This document shows positions 24,532 to 49,679 of a stretch of DNA of 64,000 nt, piece after piece (position 1 is the first letter of the stretch; every line of letters begins with the position of its first letter). The translations under genes and the position numbers were made by a program. The stretch is from Candidatus Woesearchaeota archaeon. GTDB lineage: Archaea; Nanobdellota; Nanobdellia; Woesearchaeales; JACPJR01. The stretch covers positions 9,796 to 73,795 of the forward strand of contig JACPJR010000031.1 of NCBI GenBank assembly GCA_016187565.1. Direction: 5' to 3'. The notes below the pieces were generated by a model that was not told where the DNA came from, did no database searches, and saw nothing but the letters and a program-made list of their open reading frames with translations.

Positions 24532-24592
24532 ACGTACCTATGTCGATGGCTCTTGCAACAGTAATGAAAAAAACGAGGATCCTTGAATAAAA

Positions 24593-25462: not shown

Positions 25463-25505
25463 AGTTTTTTTGATAAAAATATAAGGCAATATAAGGAGCA
25501 TTATC

Positions 25506-33499: not shown

Positions 33500-34749
33500 T
33501 CAATGAATATTTTATTTCATTCCATAGACGAGCTCTGCGTATCATGAACAATCCAATGAAGAATTCCATGAACTGTGATTTTTGTAAGCATCCAATAACT
33601 CCAGTCTATAACGTACCTTCATCACCACGAAAAGCTGTTGTTAAGGTTTGCAGCCACTGTGGGCTTGTCCAAAGTACATTTCTTAACAACTCTTCTCTTC
33701 CTCGACAGGTTGCGGTTACCTCAGAAGCAAGTTGGGGAAATGTGCGCTATGGTAAATCCTTCAGAACAACTCCGCATGTAGATATCCTCGATAAGTTTCT
33801 TTCCTGGCACAGGCTTCAGCAGGTAATAGATGTTGGGTCTAATCGAGGAAGTTTTATTCAGGCGATCTATAATAAAGGAAATTTTCCCATTCTTGCTGTT
33901 GAACCAGATAAGCATATCTCTCCAGACTTTCATGATTTTCCGAGAGTGAAGCTTCTTTTAGATCGTATTGAGCATATTTCTTTTATCAACGAAAAAGCCA
34001 ACGAAAAATTTGACCAAAAATTTGACCTTATCTATCTTTCTCATACCCTCGAACATCTTGAGTCGCCGTTTCTGACCCTTCAACAACTTACCCATCATGC
34101 ACAGCAACATGCGTATCTGTTTGTAGAGGTTCCTAATATTGAGTTCCTGAGGAGTAAAGATATTGTTGAAGAATTCTTTATTGATAAGCATACCTTCCAT
34201 TTTTCTCGATCTACGCTAAAAAACTATCTCTTGCATTTTGGATGGCAGATCCTCTATGAGAACCCTTCTGATGATATCCTGAATATTACGTTGTTAGCAA
34301 CATTGCATCCCTCAGGTATTCAGGGAAAAACGTTTCTTTCGGTTGATGTACCGAAAACAATTGCGCAGATCACACAATACAAAGAAACAAAAGAAAAGAA
34401 TATGCGTGCTCTAAATAACGTTGCAACATACATTGAAGCCTTGTATCCGAAAAAAATTGGTATTTGGGGGGCTGGGCGTCTTTACCATGCATTAGTACAA
34501 CACGGTAACCTTAACAAAGAAAAGATAGCAGTTCTTATTGATTCCTATCTTCCTGCGTATGTCGATAACCTTAATGATCAGCGTATTTTGCTTCCTGATG
34601 AAGTCTCTTTTAAGGACATTGATGTTCTTGTGATCATGTCACGGCAGTATGTTACTGAAATAACTACAAGAGCTCGTCAACTGGGTTTTCATGGTGAGAT
34701 CATAGAGTATAGCGGACTATTACAGCAAATGTCTTCTTCAGTAGTTTAA
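33496..34749 (+). CDS. NDP-sugar C-methyltransferase-like protein (N-terminal zinc ribbon + class I MTase + C-methyltransferase C-domain)
   Basis: CDFC...CSHC zinc ribbon, SAM motif VIDVGSNRGSFIQAI, and a C-terminal extension, as in the TylCIII/EryBIII architecture. Confidence 0.55.
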   Translation: MINEYFISFHRRALRIMNNPMKNSMNCDFCKHPITPVYNVPSSPRKAVVKVCSHCGLVQSTFLNNSSLPRQVAVTSEASWGNVRYGKSFRTTPHVDILDKFLSWHRLQQVIDVGSNRGSFIQAIYNKGNFPILAVEPDKHISPDFHDFPRVKLLLDRIEHISFINEKANEKFDQKFDLIYLSHTLEHLESPFLTLQQLTHHAQQHAYLFVEVPNIEFLRSKDIVEEFFIDKHTFHFSRSTLKNYLLHFGWQILYENPSDDILNITLLATLHPSGIQGKTFLSVDVPKTIAQITQYKETKEKNMRALNNVATYIEALYPKKIGIWGAGRLYHALVQHGNLNKEKIAVLIDSYLPAYVDNLNDQRILLPDEVSFKDIDVLVIMSRQYVTEITTRARQLGFHGEIIEYSGLLQQMSSSVV

Positions 34750-35077: not shown

Positions 35078-35136
35078 CTACAGGTAATAGCAATAATGAT
35101 ATGACCCTACATCTGTAGATGATAGACGATTGTAAG

Positions 35137-35181
35137 GAGAATAAAGAAAATAAAGAAAATAAAGAAAATAAAGAAAATAAA
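35137..35181. repeat. 9-bp tandem repeat (GAAAATAAA) x5 (first copy imperfect), between an AGGAGA Shine-Dalgarno-like element and the cysD ATG at 35191
   Basis: The repeat is read directly from the sequence. If the upstream ATG at 35119 is used, it encodes an (ENK)5 N-terminal tail. Confidence 0.9.
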
Positions 35182-35190
35182 GATAGTACC

Positions 35191-35994
35191 ATGGAATACC
35201 TCGACGAACTTGAAAGCAAAAGTGTCTATGTCATCAGGGAAGCATATCATCAATTTAGAAATCTAGCGTTACTTTGGAGCATTGGTAAGGATTCAACAGC
35301 ACTACTTTGGCTTTGTCGGAAGGCCTTTTATGGAAAAATTCCCTTTAAAGTTCTCCATATTGATACTACGTTTAAATTTCCTGAAATGTATGCTTTCCGT
35401 GATAAATATGCTCGAGAATGGAACCTTCCGTTGGTTATTGTTAAGAACGAGGAAGCATTAGCCCGAGGAGTCAATTACGATACCTGTGATTCTTTGACCG
35501 TTTGCACTGAACTAAAAACCAATGCTCTTAAACAGGCTGTTGCAGCGTATGGATTTAAGGCCCTCTTAGTAGGCATCCGAAGAGATGAACATGGCATTCG
35601 GGCTAAAGAACGTTATTTTTCTCTACGAAACCAGGATTTTCAGTGGAATTATAAGGCGCAGGCGCCTGAATTATGGGATCAGTATAAAACCAAGCAAGAA
35701 GAAGATGAACATATCCGGGTTCATCCGTTGCTTCACTGGACCGAACTTGACATTTGGGAATATATCAAGAGAGAAAATATTCCTATTAACACCTTGTATT
35801 TTGCGAAAAATGGTAAGCGCTATCGTAGTCTTGGTTGTATGCCTATAACGAAGCCTATTGTTTCAAATGCCGACAATGTTGATAGAATTATCGAAGAGAT
35901 TCGGACATCAAAGACCACTGAACGTGCAGGACGGGCGCAGGATAAAGAACAGATGCACGCCATGCAAAAATTACGTGCATTGGGTTATATGTAA
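35191..35994 (+). CDS. cysD: Sulfate adenylyltransferase subunit 2 (ATP sulfurylase small subunit, PAPS-reductase fold)
   Basis: LWSIGKDSTALLWL PP-loop and CysD-family blocks (HIDTTFKFPEMY, LVGIRRDE). Homologues start near MEYLDELES (35191). The ORF track offers an alternative in-frame start at 35119. Confidence 0.85.
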   Translation: MEYLDELESKSVYVIREAYHQFRNLALLWSIGKDSTALLWLCRKAFYGKIPFKVLHIDTTFKFPEMYAFRDKYAREWNLPLVIVKNEEALARGVNYDTCDSLTVCTELKTNALKQAVAAYGFKALLVGIRRDEHGIRAKERYFSLRNQDFQWNYKAQAPELWDQYKTKQEEDEHIRVHPLLHWTELDIWEYIKRENIPINTLYFAKNGKRYRSLGCMPITKPIVSNADNVDRIIEEIRTSKTTERAGRAQDKEQMHAMQKLRALGYM

Positions 35995-36050
35995 GGGTAG
36001 GGGTAGGTAGCTTTTGGGATGAAAGTAATGACAGTAATGAGGGTAATGGT
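35995..36050. repeat. Short tandem repeats in cysD-cysN spacer (GGGTAG x2; three AGTAATGA-like 9-mers)
   Basis: gggtaggggtaggtag at 35995-36010, and gtaatg at 36025, 36034 and 36043 with 9-bp phasing. Confidence 0.6.
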
Positions 36051-36069
36051 GATATCTGGTGATAAATAA

Positions 36070-37335
36070 ATGAATAACAGGATTGCTTCTCTTCCTCAAG
36101 AAAATCGAGAAAATCTTCGTGTAGTTATTGTTGGCCATGTTGATCACGGCAAGTCTACCTTTATTGGAAGATTACTCTATGATACGAATAGTTTACCTGA
36201 TGAGAAGATTCAAGAGCTTAAAACTATCGCCGAAGCCCTTGGAAAAGATATCGAGTTCAGTTATATCATGGATCATCTACAGGAAGAGCGTGATCAGGGG
36301 ATCACTATTGATACTGCCCAAATTTTCTTCAATACCATAAAACGACACTATACCATTATTGATGCTCCGGGCCATGTTGAATTCTTGAAGAATATGATCA
36401 CTGGAGCTTCACAGGCAGATGCAGCAATCTTACTTGTTGATGTAGCTGAGGGAATACAGGAACAGACAAGGAGGCATGCATATCTCCTGAGTATGCTTGG
36501 ATTCCATCATATTGTTGTTTTATTGAATAAGATGGATTTAGTTCATTACCAACAAGAAGTATTTGATGCACTTGTATCCTCTCTTGGCGTATTCCTTGCT
36601 CCGCTTCATATGCATGCCCAGTACATTCCTTTTTCAGCAAAAAATGGAGACAACCTTGCTGTTCTTTCTCCAAATATGCCTTGGTATAAGGGAAAAACCG
36701 TACTTGATGCCTTGGATGCATTGCCCTTGCAAAAAGACTTACGTCAGTCTCCACTTCGTTTTCTTGTTCAGGACATTTATAATTTTGATAAACGAATCTA
36801 CGTCGGAGTTGTTGGAAGCGGTAGCCTGAATAAAGGGGACAAGGTTGTTATCCTTCCTTCAGGTGAAAAAACATGCATTGCCTCTCTCGAAGAATGGAAC
36901 CGCTCGATAACTACTGCAGAAGCGGGAAAATGTCCAGGGTTTATAACAACAACAAAAGTCTTTATTGACCGTGGAAATGTTATTGTAAAAGAACATGAAA
37001 CACATCCTATTATTACAAAAAATTTTACTGCTCATCTTTTTTGGCTAGAGAGCAAGCCCTTTGTAACAGGCGAACGGCTCATGTTTCGATGTGGGACCCA
37101 GCAGACGCTTTGTGATGTCACGGTAAAAAAGACCATAGATTCTTCTACCCTGGCGCTTATTGCAGAGTCGCCTGATGAAATTAAGAATCGGGAAGTAGCC
37201 GAAGTTGTTATTACTACAAGTCAGCCGGTGATCATAGAGAATTTCCATAATGTTCCTGAACTAGGAAGATTTGTGCTTGAGAGGAACGACACTTGTGCAG
37301 GAGGCATTATTATAGCTAATGGTGATTCTGTATGA
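36070..37335 (+). CDS. cysN: Sulfate adenylyltransferase subunit 1 (GTPase CysN, no APS-kinase domain)
   Basis: G1 [10 protein letters not shown]3 DAPGH and G4 NKMD, with EF-Tu-like domains II/III. 421 aa. Confidence 0.85.
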
Positions 37336-38060
37336 TCGTTGTTCTTGCGATTGATGCCTTAGAGTTTGACCTTGTTGAAAAGTTCTCCTGTACACATTTA
37401 AAGCAGCAGTTTTATGGGAAGACTAACATCCAAGAATTCTCAGAGCCTCGTACCATGGTCTTATGGAGTTCGTTTATGACCGGTATAAATAAAGAAAAAG
37501 AGGTTTTGGCAGGTGGAAATCAAGAGATGTGGGATAAACAGTGGTCTTATGATGAAACCTTCTTCAAGACTTTTAAGAATCCTTGTGTTCTTGATCTGCC
37601 AGGATACAGTTATGATCTCAAAGTGCACGAAAAATCTCGGCTTTTACTTAAAAAATTTTTTCTTGTCAATTCTCCCGAAGAAAAAGAGGCTATACGTAAA
37701 GAGTACAATCAGGATGCATTTGTCCATCATCGAGCTATAAAAACTGCCTTTTTTGAGGCTTTACAGAGTAATCATGATTTTGTTCTTGGCTATTTCTCGG
37801 TTGCCGATGTTATCGGTCATCTCAATTTTGGAAATACCCTTATGATGCGGATGATCTATAGTGATTTAGAGGAGATTGCATCGAAGATTATGGTAAAGAA
37901 ATGCATCATTCTCTCTGATCATGGCATGTATGGCGTTGGCATGTTTGGAGATCATTCTTCATATGGTTTCTGGAGTACGAATTTCCGGGATTTAGGGTTA
38001 CCCCGTATTACGGATTTTCGGAGCATTATTGAAGAACTGAACAACGTTGAAATAAAATAG
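37332..38060 (+). CDS. Small alkaline-phosphatase-superfamily protein (phosphodiesterase/sulfatase-like fold)
   Basis: [12 protein letters not shown]-terminal metal-site block and a C-terminal LSDHGMYG motif. The start overlaps the cysN stop (ATGA), so the two are probably translationally coupled. Confidence 0.5.
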
Positions 38061-38122: not shown

Positions 38123-40030
38123 ATGGACGTAACAACGATTAAAAATCTCTATCTGAAAGCAGTAGGCATTCGAGAAGATGTCCTCCATATGCTGAAGTTT
38201 GCAGGGAGTGGTCATCTTGGTGGATCTTTTTCTGCGGCCGAATTATTGAGTGTTTTATATTTCCATGAACTAAAACTTGATCCCAAACATCCAAATTGGG
38301 AAGAACGAGACCGTTTTGTGCTTTCAAAAGGGCACTGTTGTCCTGGATTGTATGCCGTACTTGCTGAAAGAGGCTTTTTCTCAAAAGAAGAATTTAAAAT
38401 GCTAAGAAAGGTCAATGGAAATTTACAGGGCCATCCTGAGCGCATTACTCCAGGAGTTGAATTTATTGCAGGATTCTTGGGACAAGGGCTTTCTGCTGGT
38501 TTAGGTATGGCATTAGGCTTTAAGCGGATGAAAAAAAACAATAGGATTTATGTTATGATCGGAGATGGAGATAATCAAGAAGGCCAGACGTGGGAAGCAG
38601 CACGCTTTGGTGTCCACAATAAACTGGATAATCTCGTAGCAATATATGATTATAACAATCTCCAGAGCGATGACCGAACAGAAAACATCCTCACGATTAA
38701 AGATCCTGAAAAGCAATGGACCAGTTTTGGATGGCATGCTATTGTTATTGACGGGCATCATGTTGAGCAGATTGTGCGTGCGTTGACAGAAGCTAAGACC
38801 ATCAAACAGAAACCAACGATTATTATTGCCCACACCCTCAAGGGAAATGGGGTTTCCTTCTATGCTGATAATCCTAACTCTCATGGAAGCTGGGCACCGT
38901 CAGATAGTGATTACAAAAATGCCCTTGCAGAGCTCCAAGAAACACGTAATAGACTGGTGAGAGAGGAATTTCCTCTTGCTCGTAGAGAATTGACGTTTTT
39001 CAATCCACAAATTGATGTTCGTTCGAGTAAAGATAATTGTTCGACAGATCAACAGGGAGAAGCATTTGAGCCCTATGTTTTTAAGAAAGAGGAGAAGTAC
39101 AGCTTACGAAATGCATTTGGTATGGCTGCCGCAAACCTTGCCAAGAAGTACGATAACTTTGATCTTTTTGATGGCGATGTTCGTGGTGGAACCATGACTT
39201 GTATTTTTGAAAAACATTTTCCCCATCGTTTTATCCAATGTGGCATTGCTGAACAAAACATGATGAGTGTAGCTGCAGGATATCATCTGGCAACAGAGAG
39301 AATTCCTATTGTTACTACCTATGCTGCGTTTACCTCGCTACTCACTGCAGCACAGTTTAGAAATAACATTGCCATGCAGAAACTTCCGGTCATAGTTGCA
39401 TCGAGCCACAACGGAACAGATACTGGACCAGATGGACCTACGCATCAGGCAATTGAGGATTTAGGTGTCTTTCGAACCTATCCTGGGGTTGTTGTTATTT
39501 CTGCTGCTTGTCCGTATCAGATTCACGGCTTGTTAGAGGCAGCACTCTTAGGCAAGAAGCCAGTCTACATGCGAACAGGAAGAAGCCCTACCCCTGTCTT
39601 GTACGGTCCGTCTGAACATTTTAGCATTGGTAAGGATACAGTACTGAGAAAAGGGACTGACATCACGTTTTTTGCAACAGGCCTTCTCGTTAAACGAGCC
39701 CTTGATGCAGCAGAACAATTGAGCAGTGAGGGCATTGATGCTGAGGTTATTAATATCGCCACGCTTAACCCCCTTGATACTCAATTGATTTTACAATCAG
39801 TCAGGAAAACTAAGCGTGCACTTGTTGCCGAGGATCATTATCTTCACAATGGATTAGGCGGAGCAATAAGCCAGTTTTTGGGAGAACAATTTCCCGTGCC
39901 CCTAAGATATATTGCTCTCCGAACCTATGCTGAATCAGGAGATCCTCAGGAATTGGCAGCAAAGTATCACCTTACATCAAATGATATTTTTTTAACCGCT
40001 CAAGAAATGATTCGAGGTGATTTACATTAA
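38123..40030 (+). CDS. tkt: Transketolase, fused N-terminal (TPP-binding) and C-terminal (pyrimidine-binding) sections
   Basis: The N-part (GSGHLGGSFSAAELLSVLYF...RDRFVLSKGH...IGDGDNQEGQTWEA) matches split-type TK N subunits. The C-part (FGMAAANLAKKYDNFDLFDGDV...CGIAEQNMMSVAAG) matches TK C subunits. A ~100-aa linker joins them. Confidence 0.85.
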   Translation: MDVTTIKNLYLKAVGIREDVLHMLKFAGSGHLGGSFSAAELLSVLYFHELKLDPKHPNWEERDRFVLSKGHCCPGLYAVLAERGFFSKEEFKMLRKVNGNLQGHPERITPGVEFIAGFLGQGLSAGLGMALGFKRMKKNNRIYVMIGDGDNQEGQTWEAARFGVHNKLDNLVAIYDYNNLQSDDRTENILTIKDPEKQWTSFGWHAIVIDGHHVEQIVRALTEAKTIKQKPTIIIAHTLKGNGVSFYADNPNSHGSWAPSDSDYKNALAELQETRNRLVREEFPLARRELTFFNPQIDVRSSKDNCSTDQQGEAFEPYVFKKEEKYSLRNAFGMAAANLAKKYDNFDLFDGDVRGGTMTCIFEKHFPHRFIQCGIAEQNMMSVAAGYHLATERIPIVTTYAAFTSLLTAAQFRNNIAMQKLPVIVASSHNGTDTGPDGPTHQAIEDLGVFRTYPGVVVISAACPYQIHGLLEAALLGKKPVYMRTGRSPTPVLYGPSEHFSIGKDTVLRKGTDITFFATGLLVKRALDAAEQLSSEGIDAEVINIATLNPLDTQLILQSVRKTKRALVAEDHYLHNGLGGAISQFLGEQFPVPLRYIALRTYAESGDPQELAAKYHLTSNDIFLTAQEMIRGDLH

Positions 40031-40754
40031 ACTCAACAATAAAGTCGCTATTGTTACTGGTTCAAGTAGAGGGATTGGCAAATCCATTGCCCTTGCCTTT
40101 GCCAAAGAAGGTGCAGATGTTGTTATTACCTATAAATCTGAAGAGACAAAAGCAAAGGAAGTTGTAAACGCTATTAAGGCATTGAAGAGGGATGCAATTG
40201 CTGTAAAAGTCGATGTAAGTCAACGTAAAGATTTAATTGTTCTTGTCCAAGAAACCATGAAACATTTCAGAAGGATTGATATTTTGGTGAACAATGCAGG
40301 GATTAACAAACCCAGCGACTTTCTTGATATCACTGAAGAAGATTGGGATGCTATCATTGATACGAATCTCAAAGGAGCATTTTTATGCTCCCAGGAAGTC
40401 TTGAAAGTAATGAAGGAACAAAAAAGTGGTGTTATCATTAACATCTCCTCAGTGAGCGGTCAATATGGAGGCCCACGCACATGCCATTACGCGGTTTCTA
40501 AAGCTGGTCTCATCATGATGGGGTATAATCTTGCACTGAACTTTGCCAAGTACAATATCCGCGTTATTAATATTGCCCCAGGCGTTATCGAATCAGAAAT
40601 GGCCAAGGCAGCTGCAAGTCTCGATCTTAAAATTCCTTTACAGCGCCTTGGTAAAGCAGATGAAGTAGCAAAAGCAGCAGTTTTTTTAGCATCTGATGAT
40701 GCAAGTTATATTACCGCCTTTACCATGAATGTCAATGGCGGCTTGTATTTTTAG
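40017..40754 (+). CDS. Short-chain dehydrogenase/reductase, FabG-like (classical SDR)
   Basis: TGSSRGIGKSIA cofactor motif, an NNAG region, and the catalytic YAVSKAG (YxxxK). It overlaps the tkt end by 14 nt. Confidence 0.85.
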   Translation: MIYIKLNNKVAIVTGSSRGIGKSIALAFAKEGADVVITYKSEETKAKEVVNAIKALKRDAIAVKVDVSQRKDLIVLVQETMKHFRRIDILVNNAGINKPSDFLDITEEDWDAIIDTNLKGAFLCSQEVLKVMKEQKSGVIINISSVSGQYGGPRTCHYAVSKAGLIMMGYNLALNFAKYNIRVINIAPGVIESEMAKAAASLDLKIPLQRLGKADEVAKAAVFLASDDASYITAFTMNVNGGLYF

Positions 40755-40784
40755 TAACTAAGTTTTAGCAACAAGGTAAATCTC

Positions 40785-42014
40785 ATGCAAAAGCGATTAT
40801 TGGTTATTGGAGGAGGACCTGAGATGGTCCCTCTGTTTTCACTCACCAAGCAAATGGGATTACAAACAGTTGTCACTGATAGAGATCCTCATGCACCTGG
40901 TTTTTTATACGCAGATGATCATATTCTTGCAAGTACCAGGGATATTAAAGAGACAGTTGAGAAGGTTCTTGTTTTTCATGCAAAAAAACCAATTCATGGT
41001 GTTATGACCATTGCTAATGATGTTCCCTTGACGGTTGCCAGTGTCGCACGTGTCTTGCACTTGCCTGAAATCCCACCGCTTGAAATTGCTGAAATATTGT
41101 CTGATAAATTCAAGATGAAAGAGGTTTTTAAGGCATCTGGTATTCCATTACCATGGTTTCAACAGATCACCACTTTTAAAGAACTTCAGCAGATTGTTCA
41201 TGAACGTGGATTTCCTCTGGTCCTTAAGCCCGTAGATAACTGTGGGGGGAGGGGTGTCTTTCGGCTGACATCTGTGGATAATCTTCAGGAAGCATTCTCT
41301 ACTGCACAGACCTTTTCACGACGAGGAACCCTCCTTGTTGAAGCTTTTCTTGAAGGCCCACAGGTAAGTACTGAGTCCATTGTCTATCACGGAAGGGTTT
41401 ATACTATTGGATTTTCTGATCGGAATTATGAATTTTTAGAGAAGTATGCACCCCACTTCATTGAAAATGGTGGTGAGCTTCCGTCTCATCTCTCTCCAGC
41501 TGATCAACGCAAAATGTACCAGCTTCTGGAGAAAACTGCGCAGGCGCTTCATCTTACCAATGGTGTTCTTAAAGGGGATCTCATCCTCCACAATGGTGAA
41601 GCGAAAATTATCGAAGTGGCTGGCAGGTTAAGTGGGGGTTACTTTTGTACCCATGAAACACCACTTTCGACCGGTATTGAAATTGTTGTACCTGTTATTA
41701 AGATGGCTCTTGGAGAAAAGGTTGATGAACAGGACTTGAAACCAAAATACCACCGTGGAGTTTGCCAGCGTTATTTTTTTCCAACAGAAGGGAAGGTTGT
41801 TGCTGTTGAGGGCATTGATCAAGTCAAAAAACTTCCATGGGTAAAGCTTTTCTCGCTTAATGTTAAGATTGGAGACATTATTAAAAAACCAGTAGATTCT
41901 AATGCAAGTGTAGGAGTTATCATGACTATTGGAGAAACCAGAGAAGAGGCATTGGAGCGAATGGCTGAGGCAATGGCCCATATTAAGATAAAAACCATTA
42001 AACAAACATTGTGA
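40785..42014 (+). CDS. ATP-grasp ligase (carboxylate-amine ligase-like)
   Basis: Pre-ATP-grasp + ATP-grasp layout: LVLKPVDNCGGRGVFRL, with downstream acidic/Asn catalytic regions. 409 aa. Confidence 0.7.
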   Translation: MQKRLLVIGGGPEMVPLFSLTKQMGLQTVVTDRDPHAPGFLYADDHILASTRDIKETVEKVLVFHAKKPIHGVMTIANDVPLTVASVARVLHLPEIPPLEIAEILSDKFKMKEVFKASGIPLPWFQQITTFKELQQIVHERGFPLVLKPVDNCGGRGVFRLTSVDNLQEAFSTAQTFSRRGTLLVEAFLEGPQVSTESIVYHGRVYTIGFSDRNYEFLEKYAPHFIENGGELPSHLSPADQRKMYQLLEKTAQALHLTNGVLKGDLILHNGEAKIIEVAGRLSGGYFCTHETPLSTGIEIVVPVIKMALGEKVDEQDLKPKYHRGVCQRYFFPTEGKVVAVEGIDQVKKLPWVKLFSLNVKIGDIIKKPVDSNASVGVIMTIGETREEALERMAEAMAHIKIKTIKQTL

Positions 42015-42042
42015 AAACATAATCCAAAAAACGGAGGGTATT

Positions 42043-42726
42043 ATGAATATTTTAGTAGTCGCTGCACATCCTGACGATGAAGTGTTGGGTTGTGGAGGAA
42101 CAATGGTTCATCATGTTCGGCAAGGAGACAAGGTTTTTATATTAATCACCGGAGAAGGTATTACTGCACGGTATACTCATCGTGATCAAGCTAATTTACT
42201 GCATCTTGAAAACCTCCATGTTCAAACACAGAAAGTTGCCGATATTTTAGGAGCGACAAAGCTTTTTACTCATAATTTTCCTGACAATCGTTTGGACAGT
42301 GTTCCTTTACTTGATGTTATTAAAGTGGTTGAGAAGGTTCAACAAGAGGTAAAACCAGAAATGGTGTATACCCATCATCGTGCAGATTTAAACATAGACC
42401 ATCGTATTTTGTATCATGCAGTGCTGACTGCATGTCGACCTATGCAAAAGAGTCGTGTTAGAAGGATCCTTTCATTTTATAATATCTCATCAACTGAATG
42501 GAATGTACCTCCTCCTAAAGATCTTTTCTTTCCTAATGTCTTCGTTGATATTACTCGGTCGATGAAAACAAAGCTTAAAGCAATGAGTATCTATAAAACA
42601 GAACTGTGTAAATATCCTCATCCACGATCCTTAAAGGCAATAGAAAACACAGCGAAATATTGGGGTAATTGTGTTGGTTTTGAAGCTGCAGAACCGTTCA
42701 TGCTTGTTCGTGAGAGGATTACATGA
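42043..42726 (+). CDS. PIG-L/LmbE-family N-acetyl-sugar deacetylase
   Basis: Canonical N-terminus ILVVAAHPDDEVLGCGGTM, and HxxH in YTHHRADLNIDHR. Confidence 0.85.
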   Translation: MNILVVAAHPDDEVLGCGGTMVHHVRQGDKVFILITGEGITARYTHRDQANLLHLENLHVQTQKVADILGATKLFTHNFPDNRLDSVPLLDVIKVVEKVQQEVKPEMVYTHHRADLNIDHRILYHAVLTACRPMQKSRVRRILSFYNISSTEWNVPPPKDLFFPNVFVDITRSMKTKLKAMSIYKTELCKYPHPRSLKAIENTAKYWGNCVGFEAAEPFMLVRERIT

Positions 42727-43676
42727 GAACAGCATTTATTGGTGCGCTTATTGGCGGATATGATGCACTCAAAGCTTTGCTTGATAATGGGATTACTATT
42801 GATCTTGTTTTTACGCTTGATGAACATTATGCCGAAAATGTGAGCTGCTTTCAGTTATTTGATCCGCTCTTTAAGCAATACAATGTTCCATACTCTAAAA
42901 TAAAGGATATCAATGATCCAGAAAATATTTTGCGACTAAAAAATCTTAAACCAGATTTAATGATTGTTAATTGCTGGTCGCAACTTCTTACCAAGGAAAT
43001 TTTGGACATTCCTAGCATAGGAGTCCTTGGCATGCATCCTACCTTATTGCCAAAACATCGGGGACGAGCTCCAATTCCCTGGGCCCTTATCCACGGCCTT
43101 GATAAAACTGGTGTTACCTGGTTTTTTTATAATGAGAAACCAGATGCAGGTGATATTGTTGCGCAGCGTGAAATACCCATCACCTTTCAAGACACGGCGA
43201 TGTCCCTGGGCAAAAAGGTTGATACGGTTGCTATCGAACTTCTTATTGAGGCAGTAAAAAGCATCCAACAAGGCATCTACAAAAGAATTCCTCAGGATCA
43301 TACCCAGGCAACCTATTGGAAGCGAAGAAGACCAGAGGATGGTATTATTGACTGGAACAAAACAAATCTTGCATTGTATAATTGGGTACGAGCGTTGACA
43401 AGACCATATCCTGGAGCATTCACGTATCATAACGGAAAAAAACTCTTCGTGTGGAAAGCATCTCTTCCCTTAAAGGATTTAGCAGAGGTATCATTCACCA
43501 CAGAGGATGTCCGTACATCAGGTACTATTATGAATGTTGACCCTGATGGAATTACGGTAAGTACAGGACAAGGGAATCTTATCCTTGAAGAAGTCCAATA
43601 TGAAGATGAACCAGTTCTTAATTTAGCTCTTGCGACACTACACTTTCAAATAGGTGAGGTACTTGGTAATGTCTGA
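42723..43676 (+). CDS. Formyltransferase (Fmt/ArnA-N-like, N10-formyl-THF-dependent), probable sugar N-formyltransferase
   Basis: Formyl_trans_N catalytic block NCWSQLL...GVLGMHPTLLPKHRGRAPIPWALIHG...TGVT (HxSLLPxxRG motif) and a C-terminal Formyl_trans_C-like beta domain. It overlaps the LmbE stop (ATGA). Confidence 0.8.
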   Translation: MRTAFIGALIGGYDALKALLDNGITIDLVFTLDEHYAENVSCFQLFDPLFKQYNVPYSKIKDINDPENILRLKNLKPDLMIVNCWSQLLTKEILDIPSIGVLGMHPTLLPKHRGRAPIPWALIHGLDKTGVTWFFYNEKPDAGDIVAQREIPITFQDTAMSLGKKVDTVAIELLIEAVKSIQQGIYKRIPQDHTQATYWKRRRPEDGIIDWNKTNLALYNWVRALTRPYPGAFTYHNGKKLFVWKASLPLKDLAEVSFTTEDVRTSGTIMNVDPDGITVSTGQGNLILEEVQYEDEPVLNLALATLHFQIGEVLGNV

Positions 43677-45696
43677 AGTAAAACCAAAACTGTATCTAGC
43701 CATGGTTTTTCATGGTAATCTTGGATATTCAAGTATTCCAGAAGGACATTATCCAGAAGTAATTGCAAAATGTTACTGGCCGATTCTTTCGTTGCTTGAG
43801 AAACATGGCATTCCTGCAGGTTTTGAATTTCCAGGAAGAACCCTTGAGATAATCGAGGAAAAGGATCCAAACTTTATCAAAAGATTCAAAGTCCTTATGA
43901 CTAACAAACGTGTCGAGTTTATTGGTTCGGGTTATGTGCAAAGCATATTCCCCTTAATTCCGGCAGCGGTTAATCTCAAGAATCTTTTTTTGGGTAATGA
44001 GGTTTATCAACAGATTCTTGGTTTACAACCGAAGATAGCTTTCATTAATGAGCATGTGTATGCTGATGGATTGGTGAAACTCTATAATCAAGCAGGTTAT
44101 GAAGCGATCATTTTGGATTGGGTTAATGCCGCTCATTTTAATAAAGATTTGAAGTCCTGTAAATATTCTGCAACAGGTATTGAGGGTACAGATCATCAAA
44201 AGATAAAGGTGCTTTGGAACAATTCATTCTTTTTCCAGCTCTTTCAGCGGTATGTCTATGGGGATATAGACCTTGTGGATTACCAGAAGCATGTACAATC
44301 AATGAAATCAAAAAAAGAATCTCGTGTTGCTATGATTTATGGCAATGATATGGAAGTTTTTAATTTTCGTCCACGGGATCCTCAAATCCTCCACTCAGGA
44401 GATATTAAAGAGGATGAGATCAAAAAAATTGAGCGTTTACTTCTTATGCTTAAGCAAGATTCAGATATTGAGTTTGTTCTTCCTTCACAAGCGCTTGATG
44501 TCTGTTTTTTACCTCACGTTTTTCGTATAGGAACTGCAGAAAGTCCTATCACTACAAAAAAACAGGAAAAGTACAATGTTTCTCGATGGGCTGTTTGTGG
44601 AAAAAATAGTTATCTGAGCAATACCTATTGTATGCAAGTGTATCATGAATTGATTGCCGATAGCAAGCAAACTTCTTTTAAAGATAAAGACTGGAAAGAA
44701 TTGGTGTTGTTATGGGCCAGTGATTTTAGGACTCACACTGAACCAAAAAAGCATGCAGCATTTGTGACTAAGTTAGATGAGTTAAAGAAACGCTTAGTTA
44801 CTCCTCCTGGCATAACTTTTCCTGACATCACTTCTAGCTTGATAGTTCGTAGTAATGACAGAGATATGCCTTCACTACATACGCATTCTGTTGAGCAAGG
44901 TGTTGTTACGACTGATGCTGTTCTTCTCGCTTTATCCGCCAGAAAAGGAGCAGCCATCAAAAAATTAACATTTAAAAACGTTCATAACCACCCGTTAATA
45001 GCTACGTTGCCCTATGGCTATTATGATGATATTACCCACGCGTTTGATTTTTTTTCCGGGCATTGTATTATTCTTGAGGGAAATCAGCAAATTACTGATT
45101 TACAATCTACAAAACTCGATACAAGAGAGTTTGATTCTTTTGTTGAAATAACGGCTAAAGTTCCTCTTACTCAGGGAGCTGGAACCGTAGATAAACTATT
45201 TCGTGTCTACAAAAAAATACCTAAAGTAGATGTGCAGTTACTTTTTACTTTTCATCGAGCAATTAACCCAACCTTTGCTCGTATGATGATCCTTACCTTA
45301 AATCCACATGCTTTTACAAAAAATAAACTTTTTTATCGTACGAGTAATGGAGGATTTGAAGAGGAGACTTATTTTTTTCGGAAGAATTTTGATCAGACTC
45401 TTCCAGTCGATTTTCGATTTTCTGCACGTGGCTGTTTAGGAACAACGAATGAACATTTGACTATAGGTGACAATCAGTGTGCATTAACGATTTATGCGGA
45501 TAAAACTGCAACGTATACTGTTCCGTTGCTTACCTATGAGCGATTGTCAAAATCTTTTTTTCTTCGAGTATCTCATTCATTGATAGAAACTGATGAGACT
45601 ACCCATTGTATGCTTACAGGAACTCTTCCTTTACGCTTCTCACTGGTGGCACAACCGCTGAAAAAAACAAATAGGCAACAAGGAAGTAATAGGTAA
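43654..45696 (+). CDS. Glycoside hydrolase family 57-like protein (divergent)
   Basis: Colinear matches to the GH57 N-terminal regions: VFHGNL (HQP region, here H-G-N), FPGRTLEIIEE, RVEFIGSGYVQSIFPLIP (GQLEIV region) and FINEHVYADG...AIILDW (nucleophile-Glu region). The likely start is the Met at 43669. Confidence 0.45.
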   Translation: MRYLVMSEVKPKLYLAMVFHGNLGYSSIPEGHYPEVIAKCYWPILSLLEKHGIPAGFEFPGRTLEIIEEKDPNFIKRFKVLMTNKRVEFIGSGYVQSIFPLIPAAVNLKNLFLGNEVYQQILGLQPKIAFINEHVYADGLVKLYNQAGYEAIILDWVNAAHFNKDLKSCKYSATGIEGTDHQKIKVLWNNSFFFQLFQRYVYGDIDLVDYQKHVQSMKSKKESRVAMIYGNDMEVFNFRPRDPQILHSGDIKEDEIKKIERLLLMLKQDSDIEFVLPSQALDVCFLPHVFRIGTAESPITTKKQEKYNVSRWAVCGKNSYLSNTYCMQVYHELIADSKQTSFKDKDWKELVLLWASDFRTHTEPKKHAAFVTKLDELKKRLVTPPGITFPDITSSLIVRSNDRDMPSLHTHSVEQGVVTTDAVLLALSARKGAAIKKLTFKNVHNHPLIATLPYGYYDDITHAFDFFSGHCIILEGNQQITDLQSTKLDTREFDSFVEITAKVPLTQGAGTVDKLFRVYKKIPKVDVQLLFTFHRAINPTFARMMILTLNPHAFTKNKLFYRTSNGGFEEETYFFRKNFDQTLPVDFRFSARGCLGTTNEHLTIGDNQCALTIYADKTATYTVPLLTYERLSKSFFLRVSHSLIETDETTHCMLTGTLPLRFSLVAQPLKKTNRQQGSNR

Positions 45697-45700: not shown

Positions 45701-47170
45701 ATGTCAGAAAGAATACAGATCATGAAGGATGCTTCAATTTATTCCTTAACCACGTATATTGGTGAAGCTCTCAATTTTATTCGTGGTTTAATTGTTGCAG
45801 CTATGCTGGGTCCAACATTCTTTGGAATCTGGAGGGGCTTACAACTTATTCCCATGTATGGAGCCTATGCACATCTTGGAACAATCAATGCAATGGAACG
45901 CCAGCTTCCATATTATCGTGCAAAACAAGAGCATGAACATTGCCTGCATATACGAAATGTAACCCTTTCCTCTACCATTATCATTACGCTTTTAGTGACC
46001 TTTGGTATTATTATTTATTCATTTTTCGCCTCTCTATCTCGTGAATTCCTTCTTGGTATTCAGTTGATTGCTGTTGTTGTTCTACTGCAACAGCTGTGGA
46101 TATTTTTTACTAAATATCTCAATACTGAGAAAAAATTTATAATTAAAAGCACCTCTAATCTGATTTTAGCAGTTGCGAGCATTCTCTTTATGCCTGGTCT
46201 TATTTTTATTATGGGATTTACTGGTCTTTTTATTGGTCTTATTTTGGCGTATCTTGTGACGCTCGTTTATATCTGGATTCATCTTGATTTCAAGTTTTCT
46301 TTTTCTCTTGAGGGACTGGAGCTAAAGACATTATTACAAATAGGATTTCCGATTATTATTCTCGGTTTACTTGCAACCCTTCTTATGAGTATTGATCGTT
46401 TACTGATCCTTCGTTATAGTGATGCTAAAAATCTTGGGTATTACAGTATTGGTATTATGTTTCTTACCCTTATCCGTCTAGGATCTCGTGTTATCACCGA
46501 AGTCCTCTCGCCCAGAATCTATGAACGTCTTGGATCTACTGAGAAATTAGAATCAATACAGGGGCTTGTTTTCAAACCAACCTATGTCTCAAGCCTTCTC
46601 TTTCCCTTTCTTCTTGGTATTTCTTTTTTTTTACTCCCTCTGATTATAACGATGTTTCTCCCAGAATATGTTGCAGGGATAGATGCTCTTAAAATTCTCA
46701 TTGTTGCTTCCTTTTTTATTCCCTTAAACCCTCTTGGCATGATTTTTTTTATAGGTATTTCGAAGCAGCATAAATTAATCCCTCTTGCCGTTCTTCTCAT
46801 TATCTTTACCTTTCTCACACAATATCTCTTGTTAAAAGCAGGGTTTGGTATTCTTGGAGTAGCCATTGCTGTTGGTCTTACCATTGTAGTTGAGGTCACG
46901 TTATATCTGTTGTATATGCTCTGGCATTTTACGAAAAAAGCATCAGATTTTTTCCGTTTGTTATTACGGGTCTATGCTCCATTTTTGTATTTTTTGCTCG
47001 TTGTTATTGTTGTGCAATCCATACCATTGTCTGCCTTAGGTAATATTCTGGCAACTTTATTGCAGGTATTTATTGTTGTTATTCTTCTTTCTCCTCTCCT
47101 TTACTTTTTTAATGCCATTATCCCACTGAAAGAACTTGTTGGACTTATCAAAAAAAATGACCATGCCTAA
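45701..47170 (+). CDS. Wzx-like oligosaccharide flippase (polysaccharide biosynthesis protein, MOP superfamily)
   Basis: 489 aa with ~12-14 TM helices in the Polysacc_synt arrangement. It sits between glycan enzymes and a Wzy-like gene. Confidence 0.7.
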   Translation: MSERIQIMKDASIYSLTTYIGEALNFIRGLIVAAMLGPTFFGIWRGLQLIPMYGAYAHLGTINAMERQLPYYRAKQEHEHCLHIRNVTLSSTIIITLLVTFGIIIYSFFASLSREFLLGIQLIAVVVLLQQLWIFFTKYLNTEKKFIIKSTSNLILAVASILFMPGLIFIMGFTGLFIGLILAYLVTLVYIWIHLDFKFSFSLEGLELKTLLQIGFPIIILGLLATLLMSIDRLLILRYSDAKNLGYYSIGIMFLTLIRLGSRVITEVLSPRIYERLGSTEKLESIQGLVFKPTYVSSLLFPFLLGISFFLLPLIITMFLPEYVAGIDALKILIVASFFIPLNPLGMIFFIGISKQHKLIPLAVLLIIFTFLTQYLLLKAGFGILGVAIAVGLTIVVEVTLYLLYMLWHFTKKASDFFRLLLRVYAPFLYFLLVVIVVQSIPLSALGNILATLLQVFIVVILLSPLLYFFNAIIPLKELVGLIKKNDHA

Positions 47171-49052
47171 TACCTCCGAAACTGTTCTGATCATATCATC
47201 CCAAGAAAATCAACCGCTTGTACCTTTGGGAAGAAATGATAGTGAAAAGGATCCAGAAAAAAAAGTTATTGCTTTAACCCCTCTATCTTTACAAAAATAT
47301 AATGCTATTATAGATTATAACCATGTGCGAAAAAGAGTTGATGATATTGCTGATTCTTTACTTGCCTTCTTAGAAAAGGAATATGCTGACTTACTACATG
47401 TTGAAGACATCAGTTTAAGTACGATGGTACGGTTAGCTATGCAAAACGCTTTCCTCGAAGTCGTTTTCTTCCATGAATACCTTGATAAGGTCTTGCAAAC
47501 GGAAAAACCGGTATCTATCATTCTTTACGATGATGCGTCTTCTTTTGTTGATATCATGAAAACATGGTTGTCGAGCAAAGATTTGTCAGTAACAATCATA
47601 CCTGCTCCTTCTTCACTTGTTCTTTTCTCGAAAAGAAGGAACATGAAAACCTTGGTTCATTTTCAGCTGAAAAAATCGTATATTTTAACTCTTCGACCAC
47701 TTCTTTTCAAGCTCCAGCGGTTCTATACTTGTTCTGCTCGGCTTGACACGAAAAAGGATGCAATAAGTTCTCTTGATATGCTTTTTATTACTTGTCATCC
47801 TGCTTCTTATCGTTGTCTTCTTCCAATAATTGAGGAAGCAAGGAATCAACAAAAAAAAGTACTGCTTTTGGTGCAAAATGCTAAAGTCCAATCATTGTTG
47901 CGAAAAACAACCATCCCCTTCATGCTTTTTTCTGATTTTCTTCCGAAAAATTCTCCTCAATTAATTGCACGTCTTCGTCATAACATAGAACATGCATGGA
48001 ATAATCTTCTCCAGAATGATTCATTTACCACATTAATAGTTGGATGGGGAATACCTAAATCTCAGGTACTTACCCTTTTGAAAGAGATTTTTTTCATTCG
48101 TATGGTACAAGCTGCAGAATGTGTTCTTGCTTCAAAGGAATTTATCGGCCGATATAATCCAAAGATTCTTGTTGTCGGAACTGACACGCATCTTCAAGAA
48201 AAATCTTGTATCCATTACGCAAAAAAATACAATATCCCTTCGTTGAATATCCAGCATGGGACTGTAGGTTACACTGAACTTATGCTTCCTCTCTCTGCAG
48301 ATTACATGGCAGTTTGGGATAAAGCAAACCTGGATAAGCTTGTTGCTAAAGGTGCAGATCCCAAGCGATTAGTAATCACTGGTCAGCCTCGTTATGATTC
48401 ACTCGTCCAGGGAAAGGTTATGTATGACCGCGATGAGGTATGCCGTATTTTTCACATTGATCTCAAAAAACCGTTGTTACTTATACTCACAAGTCCCTTT
48501 CCAAAAGCATTGAATACTGAATTCTTACTAGCAGCACTTGATGCAGCAATTCATCTTCCGGGTATGCAAATTCTTATTAAGGCCCATCCTGAAGAGGATG
48601 TTTCACTTCATAAAATTATCCTCCATATTTTTGCCAAGCGTTTTGCTCTTTCTAAAGATGCTGGTGAATTTCCCAACATTCCTATAATTCGCCATTTTGA
48701 TACCTTTTCTCTTCTCAAGGCTTCTGATCTCATTCTTTCTATGTATTCGAGCGTAGTTCTTGAGGCCGTTCTTCTTAACAAAGACGTCATCGTGAGTGAC
48801 CTCAGTGGTGACAAAACCGAGGATTTTGAAGAACGAGGGATTGTTCTTGTTGCTCATCAAAAAAAGGATATTGCTTCCCTCATCAACCAGTTGATAACAT
48901 CTCCTGATCGTAAACATACCTTGGCAACAAAGAGAAAAACATTTTTAAAAGAATATGCCTTTGCTGATGGAAAAGCAACTGATCGTGTTATGGATCTTAT
49001 GCAAAAAATGGTTCAACACCGTACCCATACTATGGATACATCCCTTTTGTAG
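47136..49052 (+). CDS. GT-B fold transferase, TagF/KpsS-like (CDP-glycerol glycerophosphotransferase / capsule Kdo-type transferase family); candidate nonulosonate transferase
   Basis: C-terminal half has ILVVGTDTHL...NIQHGTVGY...ITGQPRYD...LLLILTSPFPK...IKAHPEE...ASDLILSMYSSVVLEA, which resembles the TagF/KpsS catalytic domain layout (HP motif). The likely start is Met8 or Met10 (47157-47163). Confidence 0.45.
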   Translation: MLDLSKKMTMPNTSETVLIISSQENQPLVPLGRNDSEKDPEKKVIALTPLSLQKYNAIIDYNHVRKRVDDIADSLLAFLEKEYADLLHVEDISLSTMVRLAMQNAFLEVVFFHEYLDKVLQTEKPVSIILYDDASSFVDIMKTWLSSKDLSVTIIPAPSSLVLFSKRRNMKTLVHFQLKKSYILTLRPLLFKLQRFYTCSARLDTKKDAISSLDMLFITCHPASYRCLLPIIEEARNQQKKVLLLVQNAKVQSLLRKTTIPFMLFSDFLPKNSPQLIARLRHNIEHAWNNLLQNDSFTTLIVGWGIPKSQVLTLLKEIFFIRMVQAAECVLASKEFIGRYNPKILVVGTDTHLQEKSCIHYAKKYNIPSLNIQHGTVGYTELMLPLSADYMAVWDKANLDKLVAKGADPKRLVITGQPRYDSLVQGKVMYDRDEVCRIFHIDLKKPLLLILTSPFPKALNTEFLLAALDAAIHLPGMQILIKAHPEEDVSLHKIILHIFAKRFALSKDAGEFPNIPIIRHFDTFSLLKASDLILSMYSSVVLEAVLLNKDVIVSDLSGDKTEDFEERGIVLVAHQKKDIASLINQLITSPDRKHTLATKRKTFLKEYAFADGKATDRVMDLMQKMVQHRTHTMDTSLL

Positions 49053-49061: not shown

Positions 49062-49679
49062 GTGGAGGACAGAACTATGAATGATCTACTCTATTTTATC
49101 TACCGAGCGTTTCGTCATATATCATTTCGGCTGCGAGCATTTTACTTCTCACTCCTTGTAAAAAAAATGGGAACTAGAGTAAAAATTGGTCCCGGATTTC
49201 AAACAAATGATCCTCACCATATTATCATAGGAGATCATGTCTATATTGATGCGTACTGTAATGTCATGGCTGTTGCTTCGTGGAAAGGAGAAAAATATAA
49301 CCCTTTATTAGAAATAGGGCATCATACGACCATCGGAAGATTTGCTCATATTACCTGTGTCAACAAGGTACGTATTGGCAGTAATGTTATGTTTGCTGAG
49401 CGTGTGTTTATAGGTGATCACGACCATGCCTATAAAGAGATTCATCAACCCATTCTTCATCAACCCTTGAGTAGAGATGGTGTTACTGAAATCGGCGATG
49501 GTTGTTGGTTAGGTGTAGGTTGTGTTATTCTTAAGGATGTGCATATTGGCAAGCATTGTGTTATTGGATCTAACAGCGTTGTTACAAAGGATATTCCTGC
49601 GTATTCAGTAGCAGTTGGCATTCCTGCTCGGGTTATACAGCAATACGATCACGCCACAGGAACATGGATACACGTTTAG
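49062..49679 (+). CDS. Hexapeptide-repeat (left-handed beta-helix) sugar acetyltransferase
   Basis: Tandem hexapeptide repeats: IGDGCWLGVGCVILKDVHIGKHCVIGSNSVVTKDIPAYSVAVGIPARVI. Confidence 0.8.
   Translation: MEDRTMNDLLYFIYRAFRHISFRLRAFYFSLLVKKMGTRVKIGPGFQTNDPHHIIIGDHVYIDAYCNVMAVASWKGEKYNPLLEIGHHTTIGRFAHITCVNKVRIGSNVMFAERVFIGDHDHAYKEIHQPILHQPLSRDGVTEIGDGCWLGVGCVILKDVHIGKHCVIGSNSVVTKDIPAYSVAVGIPARVIQQYDHATGTWIHV

Follow-up and report, generated by a model that had tools for sequence, protein, structure and literature searches.

We analysed 64,000 nt of DNA from a Candidatus Woesearchaeota archaeon, the whole of which is referred to here as the window. The subject of this work is a block of six co-directional genes within a glycan island, which from sequence and gene neighbourhood is best read as a transketolase (Tkt) coupled to a short-chain dehydrogenase/reductase (SDR) and an ATP-grasp ligase coupled to a GH57-like protein, with a third couple, a LmbE-type deacetylase and a formyltransferase-like protein (Fmt), inserted into the series. 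The genes of the block are as follows:

38123-40030, + strand: fused transketolase (Tkt), 635 aa, with Transketolase_N, Transket_pyr and Transketolase_C domains
40017-40754, + strand: classical SDR ketoreductase, 245 aa, adh_short 208 bits
40785-42014, + strand: ATP-grasp carboxylate-amine ligase of the L-amino-acid-ligase type, 409 aa, ATP-grasp_3 (62.8 bits) and LAL_C2 (70.4 bits)
42043-42726, + strand: LmbE/PIG-L family zinc de-N-acetylase, 227 aa, PF02585 at 85.2 bits (cutoff 28.2)
42723-43676, + strand: ArnA-like formyltransferase-like protein (Fmt), 317 aa, Formyl_trans_N and Formyl_trans_C
43669-45696, + strand: GH57-like two-domain protein, PF03065 at 65.5 bits (cutoff 21.2)

An earlier sequence-only reading had recognised the first five of these genes, and the open reading frames (ORFs), a Pfam/NCBIfam domain search and direct reading of the junctions bear out their common direction, their domains and their overlaps. 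The SDR gene starts with GTG at 40017 and overlaps by 14 nt the Tkt gene, whose stop codon lies at 40028-30, while LmbE and Fmt have a common ATGA at 42723-42726. The limits assigned to the block, 38123-43676, do contain these five ORFs but leave out the GH57-like partner of the ATP-grasp ligase, which lies beyond those coordinates. Three candidate starts are available for this sixth gene (43654, 43669 and 43702), of which the ATG at 43669, overlapping the Fmt stop by 8 nt, is the most likely; the conserved N-terminal strand of the family lies upstream of 43702, the start in a public gene call. Because the start of the GH57-like gene overlaps the stop of Fmt, the co-translated block extends to 45696 and its boundary should be moved to that position; functionally the block should also be extended to the upstream pseudaminic acid (Pse) genes and methyltransferases.

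Approximately 27 consecutive + strand genes span 20180-51096, and the proposed glycan-island setting is confirmed by the rml, Pse, flippase, Wzy_C and PMT_2 genes found around the block. Directly upstream of it, and on the same strand, is a set of genes for cytidine monophosphate (CMP)-pseudaminic acid:

26262-27290, + strand: PseB-like 4,6-dehydratase (TIGR03589, 353 against a cutoff of 408)
27319-28491, + strand: PseC aminotransferase (TIGR03588, 449.8 against a cutoff of 423.5)
28524-29594, + strand: NeuB/PseI-type nonulosonate synthase (profile match)
29625-31430, + strand: cytidylyltransferase::PseG fusion (CTP_transf_3, 122 bits; PseG domain at residues 256-528, TIGR03590, 138 bits against a cutoff of 153.6)

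PseC lies above its cutoff and PseB, PseG and PseI below theirs, yet these remain the best matches. The position of these genes, which had not previously been connected with the block, indicates that the tailored sugar is a pseudaminic-acid-type nonulosonic acid, so that the original proposal of a sugar-tailoring block is supported and acquires a specific target. No PseH-type N-acetyltransferase was found in the 64-kb window, the sole acyltransferase of which resembles the O-acetyltransferases WbbJ and WcaF. This protein, a 205-aa hexapeptide transferase (49062-49679), was considered as the missing PseH or PglD and rejected on the basis of these best matches.

The ATP-grasp ligase has 2920 homologues at ~50 % identity, and we used it as the anchor for a scan of one genome per species. 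This yielded 355 loci, of which the best 80 were analysed; neighbours were counted by tblastn with the window proteins, denominators refer to loci with enough flanking DNA, and several metagenomic loci were also compared. All of the best 80 loci were bacterial, belonging to the Acidobacteriota, Alpha-, Beta- and Gammaproteobacteria, Desulfobacterota, Chloroflexota, Bacteroidota, Nitrospinota and others. The order thiamine diphosphate (ThDP) enzyme, SDR, ATP-grasp, (LmbE-Fmt), GH57-like recurs across them, and its recurrence in 80 species-representative loci of many phyla indicates that the arrangement is not due to chance; the co-occurrence across genomes that the sequence-only reading had proposed looking for is thereby established. 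A ThDP enzyme lies upstream in 57 of 65 loci, being a transketolase in 47, mostly split in two genes, and an enzyme resembling acetohydroxyacid synthase (AHAS) in 10. The SDR is directly upstream of the ATP-grasp gene on the same strand in 55/73 loci and the GH57-like gene downstream of it in 59/63. LmbE is found solely with Fmt, the two being placed between the ATP-grasp and GH57-like genes in 7 of 63 loci and invariably paired. NeuB or a cytidylyltransferase is encoded within 10 kb in 37/42 loci. By gene neighbourhood the ATP-grasp ligase is the anchor gene of the module, and the division into three couples follows from gene fusions, from constant pairing and from the interchange of the ThDP enzyme between two superfamily branches with the SDR retained.

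We also examined 17 clusters carrying PseB, PseC, NeuB and the cytidylyltransferase, in which 96 residual ORFs were grouped into families. The frequent families were split-Tkt N subunits (10), flagellins (10), sulfotransferases (9) and TPR proteins (8), and no acetyltransferase family was present among the 25 residual families with at least four members. The module also occurs in Nitrosopelagicus and DPANN archaea, and the closest relative of the window island, locus L086, has the same methyltransferase, alkaline phosphatase-superfamily (AlkP), CysDN and 241-aa genes but is without LmbE and Fmt. In 10 of the 17 bacterial clusters flagellin genes adjoin the module, and TPR (FlmG-like) proteins are usual neighbours in bacteria too (e.g. 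L028, 13583-15112), whereas the neighbours of the archaeal copy are a flippase, Wzy and PMT_2 rather than flagellin and TPR genes, so that one tailoring set serves different acceptor systems. In L089 (regions 15965-17682 and 820-4110), a marine island with the Tkt-SDR-ATP-grasp triad, there is also a second transketolase pair, of the split type, along with two Fe-alcohol dehydrogenases, a DAHP-synthase-family gene and a B12-radical-SAM enzyme, and genes of the last kind are found beside the module in L086, L087 and L028 too.

Tkt scored 538.1 bits against NF004559 (cutoff 488) and has the three-domain architecture of transketolases, of the short, mammalian/split type. Among solved structures it is nearest to human TKT (E 1e-105) and to the split Tkt of Carboxydothermus. 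Alignment with human TKT (6rjb) showed conservation of His37, His77, His110, His258, Glu366, His416, Asp424, Asp155 and Asn185, and the phosphate-binding residues Arg318, His416 and Arg474 are kept, with Ser345 replaced by Gly and Gln428 by His. From these residues it should be a competent transketolase with a ketose-phosphate donor. All four of the homologues sampled, 60-69 % identical and one of them from Nitrosopelagicus, adjoin an SDR and a LAL-type (L-amino-acid ligase) ATP-grasp gene in glycan islands, the Tkt of L086 being 69 % identical to that of the window, which makes a housekeeping role unlikely and points to an enzyme dedicated to the module. The suggestion that Tkt might simply feed pentose phosphates to neighbouring pathways is contradicted by the same four homologues, while the accompanying idea of a ThDP-dependent two-carbon transfer followed by ketoreduction is a sensible reading of the Tkt and SDR pair. 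The AHAS-like alternative scored 513 against the AHAS large-subunit cutoff of 538 and 248 as a glyoxylate carboligase; a donor chemistry of the latter kind is not favoured, its score being far below that for AHAS. The SDR reached 244.6 against the FabG model TIGR01830 (cutoff 297.75) and exceeded the cutoffs of broad SDR subfamily models only, and by similarity it is FabG-like without being a FabG equivalog.

The best PDB matches of the ATP-grasp ligase are 4dim and the L-amino-acid ligase BL00235. Fusions of ATP-grasp and GH57-like domains (P0161, 912 aa, and a 1096-aa protein of L086), together with the constancy of the downstream gene, point to the GH57-like protein as an obligate partner of the ligase. 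It consists of a (beta/alpha)7 barrel with a C-terminal beta-domain, and its AlphaFold2 model (pLDDT 88.8, pTM 0.90) has the GH57/GH38 architecture, with the GH57 4-alpha-glucanotransferase 1k1x as the top Foldseek match (E 2e-22) followed by GH38 mannosidases. The nucleophile Glu, aligned by HMMER to Glu123 of Thermococcus TLGT, is invariant, and the putative acid/base Asp in 'GND.EIF' was placed by motif resemblance to 'HDDGEKF' alone. No invariant His or metal-site pattern was found in the barrel domain of 43 family members. We rejected a metal-dependent deacetylase as the primary reading since no barrel His is invariant and the GH57 motifs are kept, and from its residues the protein looks like a glycosidase or transglycosidase; given the gene context, activity on alpha-glucans is unlikely. 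In one 957-aa protein (P0193) the GH57-like domain is joined to a domain resembling aminoglycoside-3-N-acetyltransferases (Antibiotic_NAT), and L088 has a stand-alone gene of this type (16929-17762); N-acetylation of the amino sugar may alternatively be carried out by such a protein.

LmbE contains the motifs AHPDD (AAHPDDE) and H..IDH (HHRADLNIDH) and falls below the BshB and MshB equivalog cutoffs. Characterised LmbE enzymes (MshB, BshB and PIG-L) act on 2-acetamido sugars. The closest solved relative of Fmt is the formyltransferase domain of ArnA (E 3.6e-44, compared with 1.5e-33 for Met-tRNA formyltransferase structures), and it scored 169.3 bits against the TIGR00460 fmt equivalog, for which the cutoff is 201.5. 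The view that it is no Met-tRNA formyltransferase thus gains support, its score being below the cutoff, ArnA closer, and the gene embedded in the module at the same position in bacterial clusters. Formyl_trans_C is present (residues 203-300), and this tRNA-binding C-domain had been named as a sign of a genuine Met-tRNA enzyme, but it does not discriminate between Fmt and ArnA because ArnA has the same domain. The Asn-His-Asp triad is not intact, Asn102 of ArnA corresponding to Gly103 while His105 and Asp141 are kept. Gly occupies the catalytic Asn position in the window Fmt and in 8/8 module-linked homologues, and G-H-D was found in 111 of the top 150 cluster representatives (P0361-P0510) of an exhaustive search, which places Fmt in a large 'G-H-D' subfamily. 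One relative, 47 % identical, carries a fused 5-formyl-tetrahydrofolate cyclo-ligase, which links this formyltransferase family to folate. Two fusions of Fmt with PIG-L domains (P0393 and P0505) were identified. Members of the G-H-D subfamily are fused to PIG-L, GT2, GNAT or methyltransferase domains, and N-H-D-type relatives among the top 150 to GT2 (P0396) or 5-formyl-tetrahydrofolate cyclo-ligase (P0362).

The closest studied system appears to be sfmABCDE (SO_3261-3265) of Shewanella oneidensis MR-1, whose five products are a NeuB-like protein, a ThDP enzyme resembling IlvB, an SDR resembling FabG, a methyltransferase of 395 aa and an ATP-grasp protein of 412 aa (PMC3765264). These genes are required for a flagellin glycan composed of a 274-Da mono-N-acetyl nonulosonic acid and a nitrogen-free, O-methylated moiety of 236/250/264 Da, the latter corresponding to C9H16O7 plus CH2 units; deletion of the ATP-grasp gene caused a smaller mass loss than the other sfm deletions, removing only a part (PMC3765264). 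A later preprint still treated the derivative as undefined. The window likewise has a NeuB-type synthase, a ThDP enzyme, a FabG-like SDR, a methyltransferase of ~400 aa dependent on S-adenosylmethionine (SAM) and an ATP-grasp ligase of ~410 aa, and both sets adjoin Pse genes and an oversized cytidylyltransferase, the likeness being one of gene type compared via the published description. They differ in that Shewanella has an IlvB/AHAS-like ThDP enzyme where the window has a fused transketolase, that the Shewanella paper reports no LmbE/Fmt pair and describes no GH57-like partner, and that the former is a bacterial flagellin system and the latter an archaeal surface-glycan island. We take sfmABCDE by analogy as an AHAS-type version of the module. 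The impression that the gene set belongs to no described pathway is thus correct as far as biochemical characterisation goes but has to be qualified by the Shewanella genes. In open-access full-text literature we found nothing relevant linking a transketolase to pseudaminic acid or to a formyltransferase in such clusters, and the Shewanella paper was the sole full-text match for an ATP-grasp protein with pseudaminic acid. What is new here is the transketolase type, the LmbE/Fmt insertion and the archaeal host of a partly known kind of nonulosonic-acid tailoring.

Other known systems resemble individual parts of the locus. As in the canonical PseB-PseC-PseH-PseG-PseI-PseF pathway of Helicobacter and Campylobacter, the PseB-like, PseC, PseG-domain, NeuB/PseI and cytidylyltransferase functions are encoded co-directionally, but the window is without PseH, has PseG fused to the cytidylyltransferase and adds six tailoring genes. 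The ArnA/ArnB/ArnD system for 4-amino-4-deoxy-L-arabinose shares the N- and C-subdomains of the formyltransferase, the homology between PseC and ArnB, and the combination of N-formylation of an amino-sugar nucleotide with a de-N-acylase. Unlike ArnA, Fmt has Gly in place of Asn102 and no decarboxylase domain, its partner is of the LmbE type rather than a CE4-type deformylase, and its target nitrogen is probably different. In yersiniose synthesis (YerE/YerF) an AHAS-superfamily ThDP enzyme transfers a C2 unit, after which a reductase acts. A ThDP enzyme and a reductase are likewise found here in a sugar-tailoring cluster, but the window pairs a true transketolase (or, elsewhere, a near-AHAS enzyme) with an ATP-grasp ligase, and as the 4-keto position is consumed by PseC an acyl side chain is likelier than a branched sugar. 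Halorubrum sp. PV6 produces 5-N-formyl-legionaminic acid; a predicted formyltransferase (HrrPV6_1050) belongs to its leg cluster, and the glycan contains a sulfated sugar as well (PMC6137143). It resembles our model as an archaeal nonulosonic acid with an N5-formyl group and a predicted formyltransferase in the cluster, and differs in following the legionaminic route, with no ATP-grasp, Tkt or GH57-like genes reported. Treponema denticola flagellin carries a 2-methoxy-4,5,6-trihydroxyhexanoyl pseudaminic-type acid (PMC13439194). Known from structure alone, this O-methylated polyhydroxyacyl derivative is a chemical precedent for the predicted product, and its triol terminus is the expected outcome of ketol transfer followed by ketoreduction.

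We propose, with confidence that is evenly balanced, that the block is the tailoring part of a CMP-pseudaminic-acid-type pathway in which three two-enzyme couples carry out side-chain synthesis, ligation and an acetyl-to-formyl exchange; we infer the substrates, the sequence of the reactions and the stage at which each takes place, and the part played by the GH57-like protein. PseB and PseC would convert the uridine diphosphate (UDP)-linked precursor to UDP-4-amino-4,6-dideoxy-beta-L-AltNAc, and as no PseH is encoded the amine made by PseC would be free. Tkt may take a C2 ketol (glycolaldehyde) unit off a ketose phosphate and add it to an acid precursor bearing an aldehyde, and reduction of the new ketone by the SDR would give a polyhydroxy carboxylic acid with a vicinal diol or triol; where sister clusters have an AHAS-like enzyme in the role of Tkt, it could use pyruvate to give the deoxy analogue. 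The side-chain hydroxyls may be decorated by two methyltransferases (31427 and 33496) and a sulfation set, described below. The ATP-grasp ligase, working with the GH57-like protein, would activate the acid as an acyl phosphate and link it as an amide to the PseC 4-amine of UDP-6-deoxy-AltNAc, the future N7, thereby acting in place of the absent PseH. LmbE is predicted to strip the 2-N-acetyl group derived from N-acetylglucosamine (GlcNAc), at the future N5, and the ArnA-like Fmt to re-cap the freed amine with a formyl group from N10-formyl-tetrahydrofolate. Since the future-N5 nitrogen comes acetylated from UDP-GlcNAc, a deacetylase is needed before a new cap can be added, which accounts for LmbE and Fmt being paired and sometimes fused; such a step also agrees with the preference of LmbE enzymes for 2-acetamido sugars. 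The PseG domain, NeuB and the cytidylyltransferase domain would complete the CMP-sugar for transfer to a surface glycan.

A number of observations weigh against this pathway. The chemistry is read from sequence throughout, and the Asp424 and phosphate-binding arginines of Tkt would suit an ordinary sugar phosphate no less than the oxo-acid acceptor that the model supposes. The GH57-like protein keeps glycosidase-type catalytic residues and is given no clear job by the model. Fmt, with Gly103, is without the canonical catalytic Asn and formyl transfer is not assured. The absence of PseH covers the window only, so that the gene could be elsewhere in the genome. PseI orthologues of several species are interchangeable in Caulobacter, from which the authors infer that derivatisation takes place after condensation (bioRxiv 10.1101/2022.03.25.485807); in that case a deacetylase would be required even in loci without LmbE. 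The outer moiety of the Shewanella glycan is easily lost in the ion source (PMC3765264), a lability that suits a glycosidic or ester linkage better than an amide.

Four other explanations were weighed. Close to the sequence-only reading is a scheme, to our mind rather unlikely, in which LmbE deacetylates the sugar, the ATP-grasp ligase re-acylates the same amine (future N5) with an amino acid or carboxylate, and Fmt formylates the PseC 4-amine (future N7) as a substitute for PseH. ArnA, the nearest relative of Fmt, formylates the 4-amine of a UDP-4-amino sugar supplied by the PseC homologue ArnB, PseC itself scored 270 bits against the ArnB model, the ligase has an L-amino-acid-ligase C-terminal domain and the window is without PseH, all of which would suit this order. 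It is nevertheless not parsimonious: ~89 % of loci have the ATP-grasp ligase without LmbE/Fmt or an evident deacetylase and would require a switch in regiospecificity, and the strict pairing and occasional fusion of LmbE with Fmt argue for a self-contained pair acting on the same nitrogen. The combination of LmbE, ATP-grasp and Fmt does indicate sugar tailoring, as had been suggested, though probably not in that order. Against an amino-acid donor, the extra mass in Shewanella is nitrogen-free (PMC3765264). Alternatively the ThDP enzyme and SDR might extend or branch the sugar backbone by two carbons, in the manner of YerE/YerF or to an octulose, the resulting neutral sugar or polyol being joined by an ester or glycosidic bond via the ATP-grasp ligase and GH57-like protein. 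We regard this as unlikely. Tkt retains residues for 2-hydroxy-aldose phosphate substrates, the AHAS-like alternative resembles YerE chemistry, the GH57-like protein keeps a putative glycosidase/transglycosidase catalytic pair, and the C9H16O7 of Shewanella, labile in-source, fits an O-methyl-octose or deoxy-nonose residue as well as an acyl group (PMC3765264). However, an ATP-grasp enzyme requires a carboxylate, for which the C1 carboxylate of the nonulosonic acid would be the sole option, the free amine left by the absence of PseH would go unexplained, and amide-linked polyhydroxyacyl pseudaminic-type acids do exist in T. denticola (PMC13439194).

Tailoring might instead follow the synthesis of Pse5Ac7Ac or CMP-Pse5Ac7Ac, with the GH57-like protein, which belongs to the glycoside hydrolase/deacetylase barrel superfamily, exposing an amine for the ATP-grasp ligase and LmbE/Fmt acting on the other nitrogen. 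The interchangeability of PseI, taken as evidence of derivatisation after condensation (bioRxiv 10.1101/2022.03.25.485807), and the tight coupling and fusion of the ATP-grasp and GH57-like proteins would suit such a deacylation and reacylation, but the 43 GH57-like members have no invariant His or metal site while their nucleophile and putative acid/base motifs are invariant, and no N-acetyltransferase for a diacetyl intermediate was found in the clusters, so we consider it improbable. We attach very little weight to the remaining possibility that Tkt is a housekeeping pentose-phosphate enzyme that simply lies beside glycan genes, or that Fmt is a Met-tRNA formyltransferase. The active site of Tkt is intact and its score exceeds the 'transketolase' equivalog cutoff, and Fmt does have Formyl_trans_C. 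Both proposals were nonetheless rejected, the former on synteny and scores (4/4 close homologues and 47/65 bacterial loci beside an SDR and ATP-grasp gene, with an AHAS-like substitute in 10), the latter because Fmt is below the fmt cutoff, is nearest ArnA, has an archaeal host and is also embedded in the module of bacteria with a Met-tRNA formyltransferase of their own.

Nonulosonic acids cap flagellins, S-layers, capsules and archaeal glycans, and their N-acyl groups govern recognition by the immune system, phages and other cells. The enzymes behind unusual acyl groups are largely unknown, and the authors of work on Tannerella describe knowledge of the enzymes modifying nonulosonic acids as scarce (PMC5378307). 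The module has thousands of members in many phyla. Division into three couples gives testable roles to the dedicated transketolase, the ATP-grasp/GH57-like pair and the LmbE/formyltransferase pair, and supplies a genetic account of the Shewanella glycan moiety (2013) and possibly, should the module prove to be present in T. denticola, of the acyl group there (2017). We tentatively suggest, as a possibility on the doubtful side, that the module represents a general route for diversifying nonulosonates in bacteria, marine Thaumarchaeota and DPANN archaea, in which a dedicated Tkt or an AHAS-like enzyme would build a polyhydroxy acid through C-C bond formation, a bifunctional ATP-grasp/GH57-like system would replace PseH, and an Asn-less Fmt with LmbE would exchange acetyl for formyl. 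If so, the Woesearchaeote would display a Pse5Fo7(hydroxyacyl) residue, possibly methylated or sulfated. The enzymes of the module would lend themselves to the preparation of modified sialic-acid analogues.

Between the Pse genes and the block lie genes of putative decoration enzymes:

31427-32035, + strand: second small SAM methyltransferase, with homologues in 20/80 loci
32042-33499: type I phosphodiesterase/AlkP-superfamily protein, 485 aa, flanking the CysD/CysN set
33496-34749, + strand: SAM methyltransferase, 417 aa, Methyltransf_23 and C2185-like_N, candidate side-chain O-methylase (SfmD-like)
35119-38060, + strand: CysD, CysN and a 242-aa AlkP-like protein, candidate sulfation accessory set

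A homologue of the 417-aa methyltransferase lies just upstream of Tkt in 31/80 loci and is also present in L086 and L088. CysD scored 360 against NF003587 (cutoff 195) and CysN 336.5 against TIGR02034 (cutoff 336.1). The 242-aa protein has no Pfam match but contains the AlkP-like motifs 'IDAL' and 'LSDHGM..GDHS'; it was rejected as a sulfotransferase, having no similarity to the Sulfotransfer_3 protein of L088 and resembling a small alkaline-phosphatase-superfamily protein. The CysDN/AlkP arrangement is conserved in L086 (249-6797), where the counterpart of the 242-aa protein is 62 % identical. No adenosine 5′-phosphosulfate (APS) kinase or recognisable sulfotransferase was found in the CysD/CysN-bearing glycan operon of the window; sulfotransferase genes are present in 9/17 of the related bacterial clusters, the regions noted in this connection including L066 (5286-6128) and L088 (4004-4813). 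The presence of CysD and CysN inside the operon suggests a sulfated glycan, formed via an unconventional transferase.

Downstream of the block the island continues with further surface-glycan genes:

45701-47170, + strand: polysaccharide flippase (profile match)
47136-49052, + strand: GT-B-like 'surface carbohydrate biosynthesis' protein, 638 aa, candidate transferase for the modified sugar

Weak matches to BFO_1060 (70 bits, for a cutoff of 200; Tannerella nonulosonate-transferase family) and to TIGR04396 lie in the C-terminal part of the 638-aa protein, which is homologous (E 2e-30) to a 647-aa protein downstream of the module in L004. Further downstream are the O-acetyltransferase-like hexapeptide protein, a Wzy_C protein and a PMT_2 protein.

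The archaeal origin of the contig is confirmed by an archaeal AlaRS (808 bits against a cutoff of 744.7), Cbf5 and HAN nuclease encoded within the window, two proteins of which match, at 100 % identity, NCBI entries under the name Candidatus Woesearchaeota archaeon. A type I (bacterial/eukaryal-type) glyceraldehyde-3-phosphate dehydrogenase at 17560-18555 (- strand; 448 bits against an equivalog cutoff of 367) was probably acquired horizontally by this otherwise archaeal contig. Sugar genes upstream of the Pse set (20180-26222) include a TviC/TviB-like UDP-GlcNAc(A) epimerase and dehydrogenase, rmlB/rmlD/rmlA and a cupin, and a NodU-like carbamoyltransferase at 14191-15915 (- strand) adds further sugar-modification capacity. 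Beyond the island, envelope-related genes at 61691-62770 (- strand), 58056-59042, 54848-55717 (- strand) and 51112-53163 (- strand) encode a FemAB-like/GNAT peptidyl-transfer-type protein, an LPG_synthase_TM protein, a UbiA prenyltransferase and a PMT_2 glycosyltransferase, products which are unusual for a DPANN archaeon.

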